From an uncultured Dehalococcoidales bacterium (GTDB lineage: Bacteria > Chloroflexota > Dehalococcoidia > Dehalococcoidales > E44-bin46), in NCBI GenBank assembly GCA_964627215.1, contig CAZVIZ010000001.1:145395-209394 (forward strand): a stretch of DNA of 64,000 nucleotides, in the 5' to 3' direction. The notes beneath the pieces were generated by a model that did not search any database, was not told the origin of the DNA, and saw only the letters and a list, made by a program, of their open reading frames with translations. A program made the translations under genes and the position numbers. Below, in pieces: positions 20,742 through 48,436 of the stretch. Every line of letters starts with the position of its first letter. Position 1 is the stretch's first letter.

Positions 20742-22451
20742 TTAACGGAAGAAATAAAGCTGAGACATAGGCAGCGACTTAGCTGGCTTTACCGTTGCTC
20801 GTTCCCCGTCCACATAAACGCTGTATGACTCTGGGTCGATTTCGATTTCGCCCATCCAGTCATTATACAGCATATCACGTTTGGACAGTGTTCGCACATC
20901 GTGGACCGGCATCAGGGTCTGATGGGACCCAAGCCTGTCGGCCAAGCCGTCATCAATGGCTGCCTGAGGCACGAAGGAATAGCTTAACTGTGACGGATTG
21001 CTACCAAAGGCTGCGTACTGTGGGCGAATCTTGGTCGGCTGGGTGGTCATTAGGGAACCATTGGGTTCTCCCATATCGGCCCTGGAAATGTACCCGCCCT
21101 TTAATATGTGCTGTGGCTTCACGAAGATCATGTCAGGCCGCCAGACAACGAGGTCGGCGAGCTTTCCTGGTTCTATGGAGCCAATATACTGGGAGACACC
21201 AGTGGCGATACAAGGGTTGATGGTAACCTTGGACAAGTATCGCTTGATGCGGAAGTTGTCGTTATTAGGGCTGTCTTCAGGAAGCTTGCCATAACGCACC
21301 TTGTTGACAGCAGCAAGCTGGAAACTCTTCAGCGCGCTCTCACCGGCACGCCCCATGCCCTGGTTGTCCGCCGTCATCATGCTGATAGCACCGATGTCGT
21401 GCAAAACATCCTCAGCCCTCATAGTTTCCGCACGTGCTCGCCCATGGGCGAATGCTATATCTGTCGGCACATCTACGTTGAGATTGTGGCACGTAATCAG
21501 CATGCCGAGAGACTCATCCCAGGTATTGATACAGAACGGATTAGCACAACTGGTCGAGCTGGTCAATAAGTTGGGCTCACCGCAGCACTTCAGGAGGTCT
21601 GGAGCATGTCCCCCTCCGGTACCTTCAACATGATACATATGCATCACTCGTCCGTTGATGGTTTCAAGCGTGCGTTCCATGTATCCGGCTTCATTAAGGG
21701 TGTCAGTGTGCAGCATTATTGGTATATCGTACTCGTCGCCAATCTGCAGACAGACATCGGTTACTGCGTGGGTTGCGCCCCAATCCTCATGAATCTTAAA
21801 GCCCGTTGCACCATTCAGAACCTGTTCTCTTAGTACACCTTTGCTTATGGCATTGCCCTTGCCCCAGTTAGCGAAGTTGACAGGGAAATCGGCCATAGCC
21901 TGCAGCATCATGCGCAAGTTGTTTTGGCCTGGGCACTCAATACCAACGGTGTGAGGGCCCGTGCCGCCGCCGAATAGACTGGTAAAACCAGCGTTCAAGA
22001 ATTCGTATACTGTCTGGACGGAATCGAAGTGGACATGGGCGTCCACTAGTCCTGGAGTGACGATCTTGCCTTCGACTGACAGGATATCAGTGTTGGCTGA
22101 AACAACCAGCCCTGGGGTGATATCCATGGTGTCTGGATTGCCTGCTTTGCCCACGCCAACGAACTTGCCATCCCGAATGCCTATATCGCCTTTAACTATG
22201 CCCTGGACTGGGTCCATGATGACGGCATTGGTTATTACGAAGTCAAGAGCGCCATCGTTATATGACCATTTGCCCGAATGGCCCGCGCCATCACGGATGG
22301 TCTTGCCGGGGCCGAACACCATCTCGTCACCATAAGTACCATAATCGTGTTCAATCTCGGCAACTAGGCCTGTGTCCGCCAAGTGAATGCGATCACCCTT
22401 CGTCGGCCCATACTGTATCGCATAATCAGAACGCGGAATCTTTACGCTCAT
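20742..22451 (-). CDS. ureC: urease alpha subunit
   Basis: 569 aa: VDAHVHF...MLHTDTLNE...HVEGTGGGHAPD...MGRAGE active-site motifs. Confidence 0.95.
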   Translation of the reverse strand: MSVKIPRSDYAIQYGPTKGDRIHLADTGLVAEIEHDYGTYGDEMVFGPGKTIRDGAGHSGKWSYNDGALDFVITNAVIMDPVQGIVKGDIGIRDGKFVGVGKAGNPDTMDITPGLVVSANTDILSVEGKIVTPGLVDAHVHFDSVQTVYEFLNAGFTSLFGGGTGPHTVGIECPGQNNLRMMLQAMADFPVNFANWGKGNAISKGVLREQVLNGATGFKIHEDWGATHAVTDVCLQIGDEYDIPIMLHTDTLNEAGYMERTLETINGRVMHMYHVEGTGGGHAPDLLKCCGEPNLLTSSTSCANPFCINTWDESLGMLITCHNLNVDVPTDIAFAHGRARAETMRAEDVLHDIGAISMMTADNQGMGRAGESALKSFQLAAVNKVRYGKLPEDSPNNDNFRIKRYLSKVTINPCIATGVSQYIGSIEPGKLADLVVWRPDMIFVKPQHILKGGYISRADMGEPNGSLMTTQPTKIRPQYAAFGSNPSQLSYSFVPQAAIDDGLADRLGSHQTLMPVHDVRTLSKRDMLYNDWMGEIEIDPESYSVYVDGERATVKPAKSLPMSQLYFFR

Positions 22452-30816: not shown

Positions 30817-31563
30817 CCTGGCTTTGCGGCCTGTCTCCGGGAGCATGAAGGCGAAACCTATGCTGGTCCCAGCCAGGGCAGTAAGGATGACGATATTCCG
30901 TCCGACATAAAGCCCGCCTGCGCCAGTTGCGAGCACTTCGTGCCCTTTAATGCCGATATGACCGTTGCCCTGGCGGGTGACCAGGATCTGGATTCCCAGT
31001 GCCTGGTGTATCTGAACACCGAGAAGGGTGAGGAGTTCGCCGATGGCCTGGACGCCGAGCGCGCCCAGGGTGAGGTGGAGTCGGAGGTTGTAAAGGGGCT
31101 TATAGAAAAGAGAGCGGCTCGTAAGAAGGATCTCTTTGACGAGCTCGGCAGTGATGTCTTCGACATACAGAAGGTCTTTGCTAAGTGTATCGGCTGTCAT
31201 GCTTGTAGCAAGGCTTGCCCCATATGTTATTGCCATGTATGCTACTTTGACTCCGGTGGCGATGACCACGATATGTCTTACTACGAGAAGAAGATGGAGA
31301 AAACAGGGTGTGCCGCCGTGTTGCCTGACCCCTTGTCATATCAGATGGTCAGGCTGTCGCATGTCAGTGCCTCCTGTGTGGGGTGCGGCCTGTGCGCCGA
31401 CGTGTGTCCTGTGGGTATCCCTCTGTGGGCCGTCTCACTGAGGGCCGGGGAATCGGTCCAGAAGGCGTTTGAATACGTGCCCGGCAGGGACCAGGAGGAG
31501 GGACTCCCCCTGGTGACCTTCAAGCCGGACGAATTCGACATGGCGGAGGTAAGCAAGGGCTGA
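30817..31563 (+). pseudogene. 5'-truncated 4Fe-4S protein gene (AsrA/HydB-like Fe-S subunit)
   Basis: CIGCHACSKACPICYCHVCYF and CVGCGLCADVCP cluster motifs. The reading frame stays open and protein-like (ACASCEHFVPFNAD...) back to a stop at 30814 with no ATG, GTG or TTG before 30940. It abuts the AT-rich region. Confidence 0.5.
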
Positions 31564-42802: not shown

Positions 42803-42867
42803 ATTGACCGATGCCAGTCGATTGCTTTATAATTTAGTTAGAAGGGCTGTTTAAGGGGCAAATAAAG

Positions 42868-44265
42868 TTGCACGAGGCTTGTGGTGTTTGCGGTATCTAT
42901 GCTCCCCATGAGGATGTAGCCCGTCTTACCTTCTATGCCCTCTTTGCCCTTCAGCACCGTGGTCAGGAGAGTGCTGGCATCGCCACCACCGACGGCAACG
43001 ACCTTCAGGTTTATAATGATATGGGGCTTGTGTCCCAGGTCTTCTGCGAAGACTCCCTGGCACAGTTGAGTGGGGATATGGCAATCGGCCATACCCGCTA
43101 CTCTACCAAGGGATCAAGCCGCGCTTTGAACGCCCAGCCCATAGTTTTAGGTAGCGGTGCTGATACCATGGCCATAGCCCACAACGGCAACCTGATAAAT
43201 GCCGAGTACCTCTTCAGCGAGCTTTCGGATAAGGGCTACGAGTTCCGCACCACCACCGATACCGAGGTCATCGGCAATCTGATACTGTCCTGTCCTGATA
43301 AGGACTGGCTGGGCAAGATTAAACATGCCATGCATCGCCTGCAGGGGGCGTATTCCCTGGTTATACTAACCCACGATGCTATCTTTGCCGTCCGCGACCC
43401 CTTGGGGGTGCGCCCGCTTTGTATTGGTAAGATAGACGGGGGTTGGGTGGTGGCCTCCGAGAGCTGTGCCCTGGACCATATCGGGGCCAACTTCGTCAGG
43501 GAGGTGGAACCCGGCGAGATAGTTACCATCACAAGGGGCGGCATGGAGAGCTGCAGCGAAAAGATAACTCGCCGTGCCGTGTGTATATTTGAGTATATCT
43601 ACTTCGCCCGCCCCGACAGCATAATAAATGGCAAGCTGCTCTACCCCGCCCGGCAGGCAATGGGCGCCAACCTGGCCCGGCAGTATCCTGTGGACGCCGA
43701 TATGGTAATGGGCGTCCCAGACTCTGCTACCGCCGCCAGCGTGGGCTATGCCCACGAGTCGGGCATACCCCTGGGGGAGGGGTTAATTAAGAACCGCTAT
43801 GTGGGCCGCACCTTCATAGAGCCGCACCAGCGCATAAGGGATCTGGGGGTTACCTTGAAATTCAACCCGCTCTCTCAGATGCTTTCCGACAAGCGCATGG
43901 TGGTTATAGACGATAGCATAGTTCGCGGCACTACCACCCCCCAGGTAGTGGCCATGCTCAGAAAGGCGGGGGCCAAGGAGGTCCATATGCGCATCTGTGC
44001 GCCTCCTATACGCTACCCCTGCTTCTTCGGGGTGGATATGGCCAACCGCAGCGAACTTATCGCCGCACAGAAGAGCGTGGAAGATATAAGGAAGTTCATC
44101 GGCGCCGATTCCCTGGGTTATCTATCCATAGACGGTTTGGTGAATGCGGTGGGCCTGCCCAAGGAGATGTTCTGTCTAGCCTGCTTTACCGGCAGCTATC
44201 CCATACCGGTCCAGCTGGAGATGGATAAGCTGGGGCTGGAGAGCATGTCGGCGGGCCGGCGCTGA
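42868..44265 (+). CDS. purF: amidophosphoribosyltransferase
   Basis: N-terminal ACGVCGIYAP (Ntn Cys), HRGQESAGI, DDSIVRGTT, and C-terminal Cys ligands CFFG...CLACFTG. Confidence 0.95.
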   Translation: MHEACGVCGIYAPHEDVARLTFYALFALQHRGQESAGIATTDGNDLQVYNDMGLVSQVFCEDSLAQLSGDMAIGHTRYSTKGSSRALNAQPIVLGSGADTMAIAHNGNLINAEYLFSELSDKGYEFRTTTDTEVIGNLILSCPDKDWLGKIKHAMHRLQGAYSLVILTHDAIFAVRDPLGVRPLCIGKIDGGWVVASESCALDHIGANFVREVEPGEIVTITRGGMESCSEKITRRAVCIFEYIYFARPDSIINGKLLYPARQAMGANLARQYPVDADMVMGVPDSATAASVGYAHESGIPLGEGLIKNRYVGRTFIEPHQRIRDLGVTLKFNPLSQMLSDKRMVVIDDSIVRGTTTPQVVAMLRKAGAKEVHMRICAPPIRYPCFFGVDMANRSELIAAQKSVEDIRKFIGADSLGYLSIDGLVNAVGLPKEMFCLACFTGSYPIPVQLEMDKLGLESMSAGRR

Positions 44266-44305
44266 AAACCTCCGCCGCTAGGTATTACGCCAGGAGGTAA
44301 GACCA

Positions 44306-45307
44306 ATTAAGGAGACCTATGCTGGTGCTGGCGTCAATATCGACGCCGCCGGCAAAATAACGGATATCATCAAGAAGCACGCCGCTTCCACCCGCCGCCC
44401 CGAGGTCATGGGCGGCATAGGCTTCTTCGGGGGTATGTTCCGCTTTCAGGGCTATAAGAAGCCGGTGCTGGTATCCAGCGTAGATGGCGTGGGCACCAAG
44501 CTCAAGCTGGCCTCGGCGCTGGGCCGTCACGAGGGTGTGGGCATGGACATAGTGAACCACTGCGTTAACGATATCCTCACCTGCGGCGCCGCTCCACTAT
44601 TCTTCCTGGACTATATAGCCGCAGGCAGACTTGAGCCTCGGCAGGTGGAGTCCGTGGTTAAGGGGCTGTCGCTCTCTTGCCGCCAGGTGGGTTGCGCGCT
44701 AATCGGTGGGGAGACCGCCGAGATGCCGGGGCTTTACGCCGGCGGAGACTACGACCTGGCCGGCTTTATAGTAGGGGTGGTGGAGGAGGACGCTGTAATG
44801 GACGGAAGCTCTATCACCGCGGGGGATGTGGTATTGGGCCTGCCCTCGTCCGGGCTTCACACCAACGGCTATTCCCTGGTGCGGAAGATTTTCGGCGAGA
44901 CCGCCGCTGACCTCTCTGTGCGCCCCCAGGGGCTGGACAAGACCCTGGGTGAGGTGCTTTTGGAGCCGCACCGTTGTTATTATAACGAGCTTAAAGACCT
45001 GCTTGGGCAAATAAAGGGTCTGGCGCACATCACCGGCGGTGGTTTTGAGGGCAACGTGCCCCGCGTTCTCCCCGCTGGGCTTATGGTGCGCCTTGATAGT
45101 GCTGCCTGGGAGGCGCCGCCCATATTCAAGCTCATACAAGAGAAAGGCAATGTTGAACGCGACGAGATGTACCGCGTGTTCAATATGGGCATCGGCATGG
45201 CGGTCTTCTGCTCTCAATCGGATGCCGATGTGCTTAAGCGAAAACTTCCCGGTGCCGGTGTTATAGGTGAGGTGGTGGAGGGGGGCGGTGGAGTGGTCAT
45301 AGAATAA
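44306..45307 (+). CDS. purM: phosphoribosylformylglycinamidine cyclo-ligase, start reassigned to ATT at 44306
   Basis: The frame is open from the stop at 44279-44281 and encodes (I)KETYAGAGVNIDAAGK..., the conserved PurM N-terminus that the track start (44408) omits. There is no ATG, GTG or TTG in between. ATT lies 8 nt after AGGAGG. Confidence 0.8.
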   Translation: MKETYAGAGVNIDAAGKITDIIKKHAASTRRPEVMGGIGFFGGMFRFQGYKKPVLVSSVDGVGTKLKLASALGRHEGVGMDIVNHCVNDILTCGAAPLFFLDYIAAGRLEPRQVESVVKGLSLSCRQVGCALIGGETAEMPGLYAGGDYDLAGFIVGVVEEDAVMDGSSITAGDVVLGLPSSGLHTNGYSLVRKIFGETAADLSVRPQGLDKTLGEVLLEPHRCYYNELKDLLGQIKGLAHITGGGFEGNVPRVLPAGLMVRLDSAAWEAPPIFKLIQEKGNVERDEMYRVFNMGIGMAVFCSQSDADVLKRKLPGAGVIGEVVEGGGGVVIE

Positions 45308-45356: not shown

Positions 45357-46901
45357 TTGCGAGCTATCGTTAGTGTTTCCGACAAAGAGGGCGTCGCCGA
45401 TTTCGTTCGGGGCATAGCCAGCCTTGGCTATGAAATCTTCAGCACTGGGGGCACCAAGCGGACGCTCTCCGATGCCGGTGTTGAGGTTAAGAGTGTCTCC
45501 GATATAACGGGTTTCCCTGAGATATTAAACGGTAGGGTCAAGACGCTTCACCCTGCCGTGCACGGCGGGCTGCTGGCACGGCGCGACCTGCCCGCCCATA
45601 TGACGGAGCTTGAGAACAATGATATAGAGCCTGTGGATATGGTGGTGGTTAACCTGTATCCCTTCGTCAAGACGGTGTCTAAAGAGGGGGTTAGTTTAGA
45701 GGAGGCGCTTGAGAACATAGACATCGGTGGGCCTACGATGCTGCGTGCCGCTGCTAAAAACTTCCCCTCCGTCATCGTGGTGGTGGATCCTGCTGATTAC
45801 CCCATCGTTCTGAAAGGGCTTGAGGGTGGGGGGCTGGACCAGGACGCCCGCAAGCGCCTGGCCCAAAAGGCCTTCCAGCACGTGGCCTCCTACGATACCG
45901 CCATATCGGGCTATCTGGCCGGGGATACGAAGGGCTTCCCTCAGGAGACGACCCTGGCGCTGGAGAAGCGCTTTGGGCTGCGCTATGGAGAGAATCCACA
46001 TCAGGAGGCAGCCTTCTATGCCGAGCGGGTGGTGGGTTCGCAGCACGATACGGGCATAACCTGGGCCGAGCAGATGGGGGGCAAGGCGCTCTCCTTCAAT
46101 AACATACTTGATGGAGATGCTGCCTGGAGGGTGGTGGTAGACTTCGCCGCCCCCACGGTTTCCGTAATAAAGCACACCAACGCCTGCGGCCTGGCCAGCC
46201 ACGAGGACCTCTTGGAGGCCTATCGCCGCGCCCTGTCCGGCGACCCTGTGGCCGCCTTCGGCGGCATAGTGGCCGTGAATCGTAAGCTCACCGCCGCCGT
46301 GGCCGCCGAGATGAAGAGCATGTTCTACGAGATAGTCATCGCCCCGGAATATGAGGACGGGGCACTTGAGATATTGAAGCAAAAGAAAGATCTGCGTATA
46401 CTGGCTGTTCCCCTGCCTCCGGGTTATGGGGAGGCCGTGTCGGGTTATCTGGACTACCGCTGCGTTAAGGGCGGCATGCTCGTCCAAGGTTCGGACTCCC
46501 TGCCCGAGAGCGACGTGGAGTTTAAGACTGTAACCGAGCGAAAACCCACCGAAGCCGAGGTCGCTGACCTGCTCTTTGCTTGGCGTGCTGTTAAGCATAT
46601 AAAGTCCAACGCCATACTGCTGGCCAAGGACAAGGCCATAATGGGAATGGGGGCGGGGCAGCCCAGTCGCATCGTGGCCGCACGTATCGCCAAGGAGAAG
46701 GCGGGCGACAAGACGCGGGGCAGTGTGCTGGCCTCCGATGCCATGTTCCCCTTCCCTGACGTGGTGGAGGCGGCGGCGGAGGGTGGAGTGACCGCAATCG
46801 TCCAGCCTGGAGGCTCGCTTAAGGACAAAGACTCCATTGCCGCTGCCGATAAGCATGGGCTGGCCATGGTGTTCACCGGCCGGAGGCACTTCCTGCACTA
46901 A
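45357..46901 (+). CDS. purH: bifunctional AICAR transformylase / IMP cyclohydrolase
   Basis: MRAIVSVSDKEGV...TGGT...VVVNLYPF...IVQPGGS. Confidence 0.95.
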   Translation: MRAIVSVSDKEGVADFVRGIASLGYEIFSTGGTKRTLSDAGVEVKSVSDITGFPEILNGRVKTLHPAVHGGLLARRDLPAHMTELENNDIEPVDMVVVNLYPFVKTVSKEGVSLEEALENIDIGGPTMLRAAAKNFPSVIVVVDPADYPIVLKGLEGGGLDQDARKRLAQKAFQHVASYDTAISGYLAGDTKGFPQETTLALEKRFGLRYGENPHQEAAFYAERVVGSQHDTGITWAEQMGGKALSFNNILDGDAAWRVVVDFAAPTVSVIKHTNACGLASHEDLLEAYRRALSGDPVAAFGGIVAVNRKLTAAVAAEMKSMFYEIVIAPEYEDGALEILKQKKDLRILAVPLPPGYGEAVSGYLDYRCVKGGMLVQGSDSLPESDVEFKTVTERKPTEAEVADLLFAWRAVKHIKSNAILLAKDKAIMGMGAGQPSRIVAARIAKEKAGDKTRGSVLASDAMFPFPDVVEAAAEGGVTAIVQPGGSLKDKDSIAAADKHGLAMVFTGRRHFLH

Positions 46902-46918: not shown

Positions 46919-48436
46919 ATGGCCGCAAAGGCCGTCCTGGTAATAGATATGCTTAGGGGGTTTCTGGAGGAAGGATACCCCCTATACTGCGGCCGCGCGG
47001 CACGTCGTATCATACCTCGTGTACAGGCACTCCTGGAGGGCGGCAGCATTTTCTTCGTCTGCGACCGCCACGGCTCGGATGACCCTGAGCTTGCCTCTTT
47101 CCCCCCACACTGTATTGAGGGCACCGCCGAGGCCGAAATTATCCCTGAACTTTCAGGTTATAAGGGCGAGGTGATACCCAAGAGGGGCTTCAGCGCCTTC
47201 CAGGACACTGATCTGGCGGATAGGCTTGAAAGTGCGGGGATAACCGAACTGGTGGTCTGTGGGGTGCGCAGCGATATCTGTGTTCTTCATACCGTCGCCG
47301 ATGCCCGAGCCCGCGGCTACGATGTGGAAGTGCCGCTTGATTGCGTGGCCTCCCCCGACGAGGAGGGGCACCGCTTCGCGTGTAGGCACATGGAAAGGGT
47401 GTTGGGGGCCAGGGTGCTCGTTACTTTGGAGGCTGACGTGGGGCCGCCACGTTTCCATACCAGCGGGGCGGTGCTCTCTGGATACACCGCCGATGTCTAT
47501 TTCGCCCATACGGTTGACATAATGCGCAAAGAGGGGCTTAACCCCGTCGCCGTTATGGAGTTCTTCACCCGCCGCGCTGGTGTGTTCTGCGGCGTGGAGG
47601 AGGTTAAGGCGCTCCTTAACTGTGTCCTTCCCCCTCAGGAGAGCGAGGTTTGGGCGCTTGAGGAGGGCGATGCCATGGGGGATCGGGATGTGGTGTTGCG
47701 CATAAAGGCTCCCTATATGAGCTACGGCCTCTACGAGACGGCCATAGATGGCATGATGGCGCACTCAAGCGGTTGGGCAACCGCCGCTCGCGAGTGCGCG
47801 GAGGCGGCGGGTGGACTGCCGGTGGTTAGCTTTGGCGTGCGCCACGTGCACCCCGGCGTGGCCGCTGTTATGGACTATGCCGCCGTGGTAGGCGGCTGCC
47901 GTGGCTGCTCCAGTATCGCCGGGGCGGATCTAGCCGGCATAGAGACATCTGGGACCATGCCCCATGCCCTTATCCTTATTATGGGGGATACGGTTAAGGC
48001 CACACTGGCCTTTGATAGGCATATGCCGCCTTCCCTCCCGCGCGTGTCCCTGGTGGACACTTTTCGTGATGAGGCCGAGGAGAGTCTGCGGGTAGCGCAG
48101 GCGCTTGAGGACAGGCTTGATAGCGTGCGGCTGGACACCCCGGGGGAGTTGGGCGGAGTCACCCCGGAGATGGTGAGCAGGGTGAGAAGCACCCTGGACT
48201 CGGGTGGGTTTAAAGGAGTAAAGATATTCGTAAGCGGCGGAGTTACCCCAAAGCGCATAGCCGACTTTATTGAAAGCGGCGCCAGGGTGGACGGGTTCGG
48301 GGTGGGGAGCTATATAAGCGGCGCTGCGCCCATAGATTTCACTGCTGATCTCCACGAGGTCGACGGCAGGGCCATAGCCAAGCGGGGCAGAACCCCGGGT
48401 ATAACGGCTAATCCCCGCCTTAGGCGGATTATGTAG
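46919..48436 (+). CDS. fusion protein: isochorismatase-family nicotinamidase (PncA-like) N-terminal domain plus nicotinate phosphoribosyltransferase-family C-terminal domain
   Basis: The N-terminal half has VLVIDMLRGF...VVCGVRSDICVLHTVADA (isochorismatase fold with the catalytic Cys region). The C-terminal ~330 aa has GTMPHALI...RLDTPGE...VSGG, typical of archaeal-type NAPRTase-family proteins. Confidence 0.7.
   Translation: MAAKAVLVIDMLRGFLEEGYPLYCGRAARRIIPRVQALLEGGSIFFVCDRHGSDDPELASFPPHCIEGTAEAEIIPELSGYKGEVIPKRGFSAFQDTDLADRLESAGITELVVCGVRSDICVLHTVADARARGYDVEVPLDCVASPDEEGHRFACRHMERVLGARVLVTLEADVGPPRFHTSGAVLSGYTADVYFAHTVDIMRKEGLNPVAVMEFFTRRAGVFCGVEEVKALLNCVLPPQESEVWALEEGDAMGDRDVVLRIKAPYMSYGLYETAIDGMMAHSSGWATAARECAEAAGGLPVVSFGVRHVHPGVAAVMDYAAVVGGCRGCSSIAGADLAGIETSGTMPHALILIMGDTVKATLAFDRHMPPSLPRVSLVDTFRDEAEESLRVAQALEDRLDSVRLDTPGELGGVTPEMVSRVRSTLDSGGFKGVKIFVSGGVTPKRIADFIESGARVDGFGVGSYISGAAPIDFTADLHEVDGRAIAKRGRTPGITANPRLRRIM

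Follow-up and report, generated by a model that had tools for sequence, protein, structure and literature searches.

Comparative evidence for an old AUU initiation codon in purM of an uncultured Dehalococcoidales bacterium

Initiation at AUU, AUA or AUC (AUH) has been studied in other bacteria. In Escherichia coli reporters, these three codons initiate at approximately 1-2% of the level of AUG, and infC and pcnB are the two confirmed AUU-start genes (10.1101/063800). Both genes, which encode IF3 and poly(A) polymerase I, respectively, have a chromosomal AUU start served by a Shine-Dalgarno (SD) site and kept across related species; the codon limits their translation and is missed by gene finders that look only for ATG, GTG and TTG (10.1101/063800; reference list of PMC13009471). 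The AUU/AUA starts of Staphylococcus aureus, which have an extended SD, reach about 10% of AUG in reporters (PMC13009471). Retapamulin ribosome profiling located these sites and reporter assays then examined them; the conserved ones are those of infC (AUA), cvfC1 (AUU), ccpN (AUA) and citZ (AUA) (PMC13009471). In rsbW of Listeria monocytogenes, switches from ATG to ATA or ATT are recent events within the species that were selected under acid stress, and lineage variation of the start codon at a fixed site tunes protein stoichiometry within the operon (PMC13068326). Our literature search found no description of ATT or ATA start usage in Dehalococcoidia or Chloroflexi.

Comparison of these systems with the purM gene of an uncultured Dehalococcoidales bacterium provides a frame for the start described here. 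Like infC and pcnB, purM presents a chromosomal AUU with an SD site, retained in related species. While those two genes encode IF3 and poly(A) polymerase I, purM encodes an enzyme of purine biosynthesis without a known link to IF3 autoregulation and belongs to uncultured Dehalococcoidia; its start codon is AUU in some sublineages and ATG or GTG in others, and its initiation site is predicted from sequence comparison. With the S. aureus genes it shares a weak codon coupled to a strong, well-spaced SD that is conserved in relatives, and citZ is likewise the gene of a metabolic enzyme. The S. aureus SD is extended, whereas that of purM is a plain AGGAGG, for which the evidence is comparative. As in Listeria rsbW, the identity of the start codon at a fixed site differs among lineages; in contrast to the recent rsbW switches, the purM ATT appears old, as the loci that carry it encode proteins only 55-77% identical to one another. 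We infer that the purM AUU is a start of the infC/pcnB type and that the public call of this gene is misannotated.

The window, that is, the whole stretch of DNA that was analysed, is 64,000 nucleotides long. The purM locus within it contains the following features.

42804-42833, forward strand: promoter-like site TTGACC-18 nt-TATAAT, 11 of 12 consensus matches (a consensus match only)
42868-44265, forward strand: purF (amidophosphoribosyltransferase), TTG start; TIGR01134, 532 bits, cutoff 350
44269-44273, forward strand: CCUCC block that could pair with the purM SD (predicted hairpin; specific to the window)
44279-44281, forward strand: in-frame TAG bounding the purM frame on its upstream side
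44292-44297, forward strand: SD site AGGAGG, identified from the sequence; anti-SD duplex of -11.7 kcal/mol
44306-44308, forward strand: predicted purM initiation codon ATT, from anatomy, homology boundary, relatives and coding periodicity
44306-45307, forward strand: purM coding sequence (phosphoribosylformylglycinamidine cyclo-ligase), 333 codons plus stop; TIGR00878
44408-44410, forward strand: first canonical in-frame ATG, start of the public 299-aa call, rejected as the true start
45357-46901, forward strand: purH, TTG start, downstream of purM; NF002049, 712 bits

The TAG is the upstream limit of the open purM frame, as read directly from the sequence. The codons that follow it are GTA TTA CGC CAG GAG GTA AGA CCA ATT AAG GAG ACC TAT, and the open frame translates as IKETYAGAGVNIDAAGKITDIIKKH. 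An 8-nt spacer (44298-44305) separates AGGAGG from the ATT. Only eight open codons lie upstream of the ATT and all are non-canonical; between the TAG and ATG 44408 there is no in-frame ATG, GTG, TTG or CTG at all. This ATG is located 34 codons past the ATT, and a start there would cost 34 conserved residues. The predicted N-terminal peptide is (f)MKETYAGAGVNIDAAGK for the ATT start and MGGIGFFGGMFR for the ATG start. An out-of-frame ATG at 44319, preceded by AAGGAG, was also considered and rejected: it opens an ORF of only 13 codons and is itself a by-product of the conserved Tyr-Ala codons.

The protein predicted from the ATT is PurM, or AIR synthetase (TIGR00878; Pfam AIRS and AIRS_C). It scores 391.2 bits against the equivalog profile TIGR00878 (cutoff 236.35), with residues 4-324 aligned to profile positions 2-330 of 332, and matches solved PurM structures with E-values down to 1e-100. 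The alignment with two of these chains, 2z01 (from its residue 5) and 2btu (from its residue 4), begins at residues 3-4 counted from the ATT, and the N-terminal Y-x-x-AGV-(D/N)-I segment is present as YAGAGVNID, aligned to the solved structures. Given this boundary in both profile and structures, initiation must fall within the ten codons at 44282-44311. The SD-plus-codon motif taken by itself is uninformative: the window contains 27 copies of GGAGG-N7-9-ATH, where 25.1 are expected. As the motif is not enriched, it was dropped as evidence, and position and conservation carry the argument. What stands above chance is the placement of the site exactly at the N-terminal boundary of a conserved protein, and the recurrence of the same arrangement in relatives.

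For this comparison, purM loci were fetched from species-representative genomes (80) and from metagenomes (80), and the codon aligned to residue 1 was located in each; the comparison set consists of the 101 loci with full-length purM at identities of at least 58%. The best protein match to the window PurM is 70% identical, and the top matches all belong to Dehalococcoidia or Chloroflexota. An isoleucine codon occupies the aligned start in 31 of the 101 loci (ATT in 27, ATA in 2 and ATC in 2), and none of these 31 has a canonical in-frame start within 12 codons upstream. Ten loci have ATG or GTG at exactly the aligned codon, and others have a differently placed start; GTG at the aligned codon is also seen in L165 and L168. 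An in-frame TAG immediately precedes the ATT in L092 and L117, while an in-frame stop lies one codon upstream in L114 and four codons upstream in L102, L105 and L090, so that no upstream start is possible in these loci. A GGAGG-type site is present in all 31 AUH loci, mostly 7-9 nt upstream (range 6-11), and 6-8 nt upstream in nine of the ten ATG/GTG loci. The SD duplex is only slightly stronger for the AUH loci (-10.5 kcal/mol) than for the ATG/GTG loci (-9.3 kcal/mol).

On a neighbour-joining tree, ATT is found in most of one large clade and on deeper branches, including that of the window itself. Here and there the ATT has given way to ATG or GTG, or an ATG five codons upstream has taken over, so that a weak start, if selected for at all, is not strictly maintained. 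The distribution indicates that the purM ATT is old and inherited across a large Dehalococcoidia clade. Nucleotide entropy places the beginning of the gene at the same point. For codons 2-34 of the 31 AUH loci it is 0.51/0.52/1.28 by codon position, and for the 30 nt upstream of the start it is 1.50/1.66/1.52, with the SD block alone conserved; protein-coding constraint and three-base periodicity thus begin at the ATT, with none upstream. The start is ATT in 87% of the AUH loci, compared with 51% ATT among the internal isoleucine codons of the same genes (binomial p = 3e-5, shared ancestry not corrected for), and conserved internal isoleucine columns of purM hold a free mix of ATT, ATC and ATA. 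NCBI gene calls start purM at the ATT in GCA_042575565.1 and GCA_042575275.1 (L167 and L169), the start contexts being GGAGGAGG-tagcgccg-ATT for P0056 of the former assembly and caGGAGGagcaggcag-ATT for P0079 of the latter. The purM genes of P0005 and P0010 start at GTG.

Two further genes of the window, rplU and hisA, present comparable starts.

4934-4950, forward strand: rplU initiation region, read from the sequence: GGAGG at 4934-38, 9 nt, ATT at 4948-4950, with an in-frame TAA at 4939-41
4948-5337, forward strand: rplU (ribosomal protein L21) coding sequence from the ATT; the L21 profile starts at residue 2
7832-7849, reverse strand: hisA initiation region, read from the sequence: GAGGAGG at 7849-7843, 8 nt, ATA at 7834-7832
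7121-7834, reverse strand: hisA coding sequence from the ATA; the HisA profile starts at residue 3

Isoleucine occupies the start codon position, before YAI(I/V)ETGGKQY, in 116 of the 120 closest L21 homologues, and the extensions that precede this isoleucine (GGLK, RRLE, EVEK) resemble a translated SD. In 65 of the 120 closest HisA homologues, '..IEIIPAID', with Ile-Glu at the start point, stands behind variable N-terminal extensions. In the NCBI annotation of the relatives GCA_011192105.1 and GCA_042582925.1 (L163 and L170), rplU starts at ATT in both, while hisA starts at ATA in the former and at ATC in the latter. In the window, a promoter-like site and a short leader precede both rplU and hisA, each of which appears to be a first cistron, unlike purM, which is internal to the purF-purM-purH unit. 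SD-anchored and per-gene scans of the approximately 65 window genes revealed no convincing AUH start beyond purM, rplU and hisA, the further sites that they flagged being internal codons, and an Rfam scan of the window gave no leader or riboswitch near any of the three. The SD of hisA is spanned by an out-of-frame mini-ORF, ATGAGGAGGTTACTCCCATAG (7831-7851, reverse strand), whose TAG overlaps the ATA start. Elsewhere in the window, an open frame of 248 codons (30817-31563, forward strand) has coding-like composition and its first canonical codon 41 codons in; the per-gene scan found no start candidate with an SD site in it.

The sequence-only reading of this DNA had taken the purM frame to be open from the TAG, with the translation given above and the conserved PurM N-terminal segment in it, and had noted that the first canonical start would delete 34 residues; direct reading and the alignments to TIGR00878, 2z01 and 2btu bear this out. 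Its choice of ATT 44306 as initiator, 8 nt after AGGAGG, is supported by the homology boundary, the AUH relatives, the periodicity and the NCBI calls, and the like SD-spacing-AUU/AUA geometry that it saw at rplU and hisA is indeed there.

We are confident, from these comparisons, that purM (44306-45307) is translated from AUU 44306. In the mechanism that we propose, AGGAGG would position the 30S subunit with the AUU in the P site, and, as at infC and pcnB of E. coli, formyl-Met initiator tRNA would read the codon despite a mismatch at its third position. The resulting PurM would begin M-K-E-T-Y-A-G-A-G-V. If the AUU is a weak start, as in those genes, less PurM would be made than PurF and PurH, the products of the adjacent operon genes, and PurM synthesis could become sensitive to the level of IF3. 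The AUU on the abundantly needed L21 fits simple attenuation poorly, and hints that AUU may not be very weak in this lineage.

An alternative to a role specific to purM is that the AUU is a real start without being a gene-specific attenuator. The IF3, initiator tRNA or 16S rRNA P site of Dehalococcoidia would discriminate poorly against AUU and AUA, and the codon would be near-neutral and simply inherited. We regard this as possible, though doubtful. Such starts are frequent locally: about 3 of the approximately 65 window genes use AUH, and in NCBI calls the non-canonical starts (AUH or CUG) number 3 among 14 genes for L163, 1 among 19 for L169 and 3 among 17 for L170 (including one CTG). E. 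coli has only infC and pcnB as confirmed AUU starts (10.1101/063800), and among 120 relatives, 116 retain AUU on rplU, a highly expressed gene. Yet within the same fetched loci an AUH codon at the aligned start is found for purM in 31 of 101, for purH in 1 of 117 and for purF in 0 of 68 (Fisher p = 5e-11 for purM against purH), a distribution unexpected if AUH were freely interchangeable, and which argues that the AUH state belongs to particular genes. The preference for ATT over ATA and ATC at the purM start (27:2:2) also counts against poor discrimination.

Deep conservation that is specific to certain genes, together with a high local frequency in the NCBI calls, is compatible with both a regulon and a loosened discrimination. 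We tentatively suggest that Dehalococcoidia have a conserved set of housekeeping genes initiated at AUU or AUA (purM, rplU, hisA and a few others, approximately 5% of the genes at the sampled loci), which would be either a regulon that follows IF3 or the product of loosened discrimination across the lineage. In the first case, IF3 activity would tie L21 and the synthesis of purines and histidine to translational status; in the second, IF3, the initiator tRNA or the 16S rRNA would be the possible seat. Our literature search turned up no description of either case. A tblastn search with an approximate E. coli IF3 query found no IF3 gene in the window or in the 760 kb of fetched loci, and ARAGORN found no initiator tRNA in the same DNA. 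Individual non-canonical starts seen along the way include an epimerase/dehydratase that NCBI calls from ATA (L163, 2068-3003, reverse strand), an argS called from CTG (L170, 6694-8325, forward strand), and the purH of L117, in which GGAGG and 6 nt are followed by ATA at the aligned start.

The operon context bears on a second alternative. In the window, purF lies upstream and purH downstream of purM, with the same neighbours in relatives, and the promoter-like site upstream of purF probably drives a purF-purM-purH transcript. From the TGA stop of purF (44263-65) to the purM ATT there are 40 nt, and no promoter-like site lies in this interval. Ribosomes ending at this stop might open a CCUCC:GGAGG hairpin and re-initiate 40 nt downstream, the AUU being used only through such translational coupling. 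The predicted fold does pair 44268-73 with the purM AGGAGG (region 44268-44298, forward strand), but its z-score of -1.85 is not significant and the CCUCC block, sought in relatives, is absent from them; the hairpin was rejected as a coupling device on these grounds. Many ATT-start relatives have, upstream of purM, a long gap and a promoter-like block instead of purF, and the AUH starts of rplU and hisA appear to belong to first cistrons with their own promoter-like sites. Obligate coupling is accordingly improbable as an account of the purM AUU.

The promoter-like block of these relatives, TTTGCAG, about 17 nt and TGGTAATCT, is located approximately 45-75 nt upstream of the purM ATT in several of the ATT-start loci (L085, L105, L083, L095, L099, L110, L113 and L102), where purM would be a first cistron under its own promoter. 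Downstream of the unit in the window, a single 505-aa ORF (46919-48436, forward strand) encodes an N-terminal part like isochorismatase/nicotinamidase and a C-terminal part that is a nicotinate phosphoribosyltransferase. In the relative L169 (13723-15250) the two parts are separate, overlapping genes. The 505-aa ORF could be a gene fusion, or there could be a frameshift in one of the two assemblies.

ATG is the most efficient start codon, and the public protein collection holds the purM product of the window only as a 299-aa protein from ATG 44408 (P0001), the upstream frame being left as non-coding and PurM deprived of its first 34 residues. That call results from gene finders allowing only ATG, GTG and TTG. 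The 34 upstream codons behave as coding sequence: 16-26 of the 34 residues are identical to those of relatives, three-base periodicity runs through them, and they match TIGR00878 positions 2-35 as well as N-terminal residues that are ordered in solved PurM structures. Upstream of ATG 44408 there is almost no SD (-1.8 kcal/mol, compared with -11.7 kcal/mol at the ATT), and the residue aligned to it in relatives is usually leucine (..EVLSG..) and not a conserved start. Initiation at this ATG is therefore very unlikely.

Initiation at another non-canonical codon of the same frame, GTA 44282, TTA 44285, GTA 44297 or AAG 44309, is less likely still. The frame is open from 44282 and each of these codons is one base away from GTG, TTG or ATG, but the first two lie upstream of the SD, GTA 44297 overlaps it, and AAG 44309 comes 11 nt after it, past the 7-9 nt usual in relatives. 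The stop directly before the ATT in L092 and L117, the lack of coding periodicity upstream, and the canonical codons that in relatives occupy the position of the ATT itself also speak against these codons.

The sequence-only reading held that ATG at this position in relatives would point to a sequence error, and some relatives do have ATG or GTG there; an error, or a recent inactivating mutation of ATG in what would be a pseudogene or misread gene, is nevertheless scarcely credible, given that Logan assemblies of two separate runs (SRR8146443 and SRR8146442) are identical in DNA to the window, ATT included, that ATT recurs in 27 divergent loci with proteins down to 55% identity to one another, among 31 with AUH, and that purM has an unbroken ORF with a full PurM score. 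By this record the ATT is not an assembly or sequence error, and start codons interchange in evolution at one and the same site.

Initiation at AUU has consequences for the annotation of this clade. In most of the 120 best PurM matches, '...PIKETYA...' is preceded by N-terminal extensions that vary and are unrelated to one another (LQLGCLKCYDYFTIRRAEP-IKETY is an example); others read MKETYA or VKETYA, some of the M-forms being themselves encoded by ATT. The extensions are gene-finder artefacts that run through a translated SD. In the genome of the window, the public and corrected lengths are 299 and 333 aa for PurM, 108 and 129 aa for L21, and 223 and 237 aa for HisA. Metagenome-derived homologues mostly carry spurious N-terminal extensions and less often truncations, since ATT and ATA are not considered by the usual gene finders. 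In this large uncultured clade, such mis-called N-termini contaminate protein families, structure predictions and the assessment of pathway completeness.

With an AUU start at 44306, purM would join the short list of bacterial genes in which such a start has been anciently maintained. Taken with rplU and hisA, the gene suggests that weak starts are unusually common on core genes in Dehalococcoidia, and start-codon stringency, with its regulatory use, becomes testable outside E. coli and Firmicutes.

One other region of the window differs in composition. Between approximately 13300 and 30400, the third-position G+C of ORFs is 0.33-0.66, compared with about 0.70 elsewhere, and urease and transporter genes can be recognized by eye; this segment may be an acquired island. 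The only Rfam match in the window, 5_ureB_sRNA (22000-22298, forward strand), is antisense to a 569-aa ORF (20742-22451, reverse strand), and may simply reflect conserved coding sequence.
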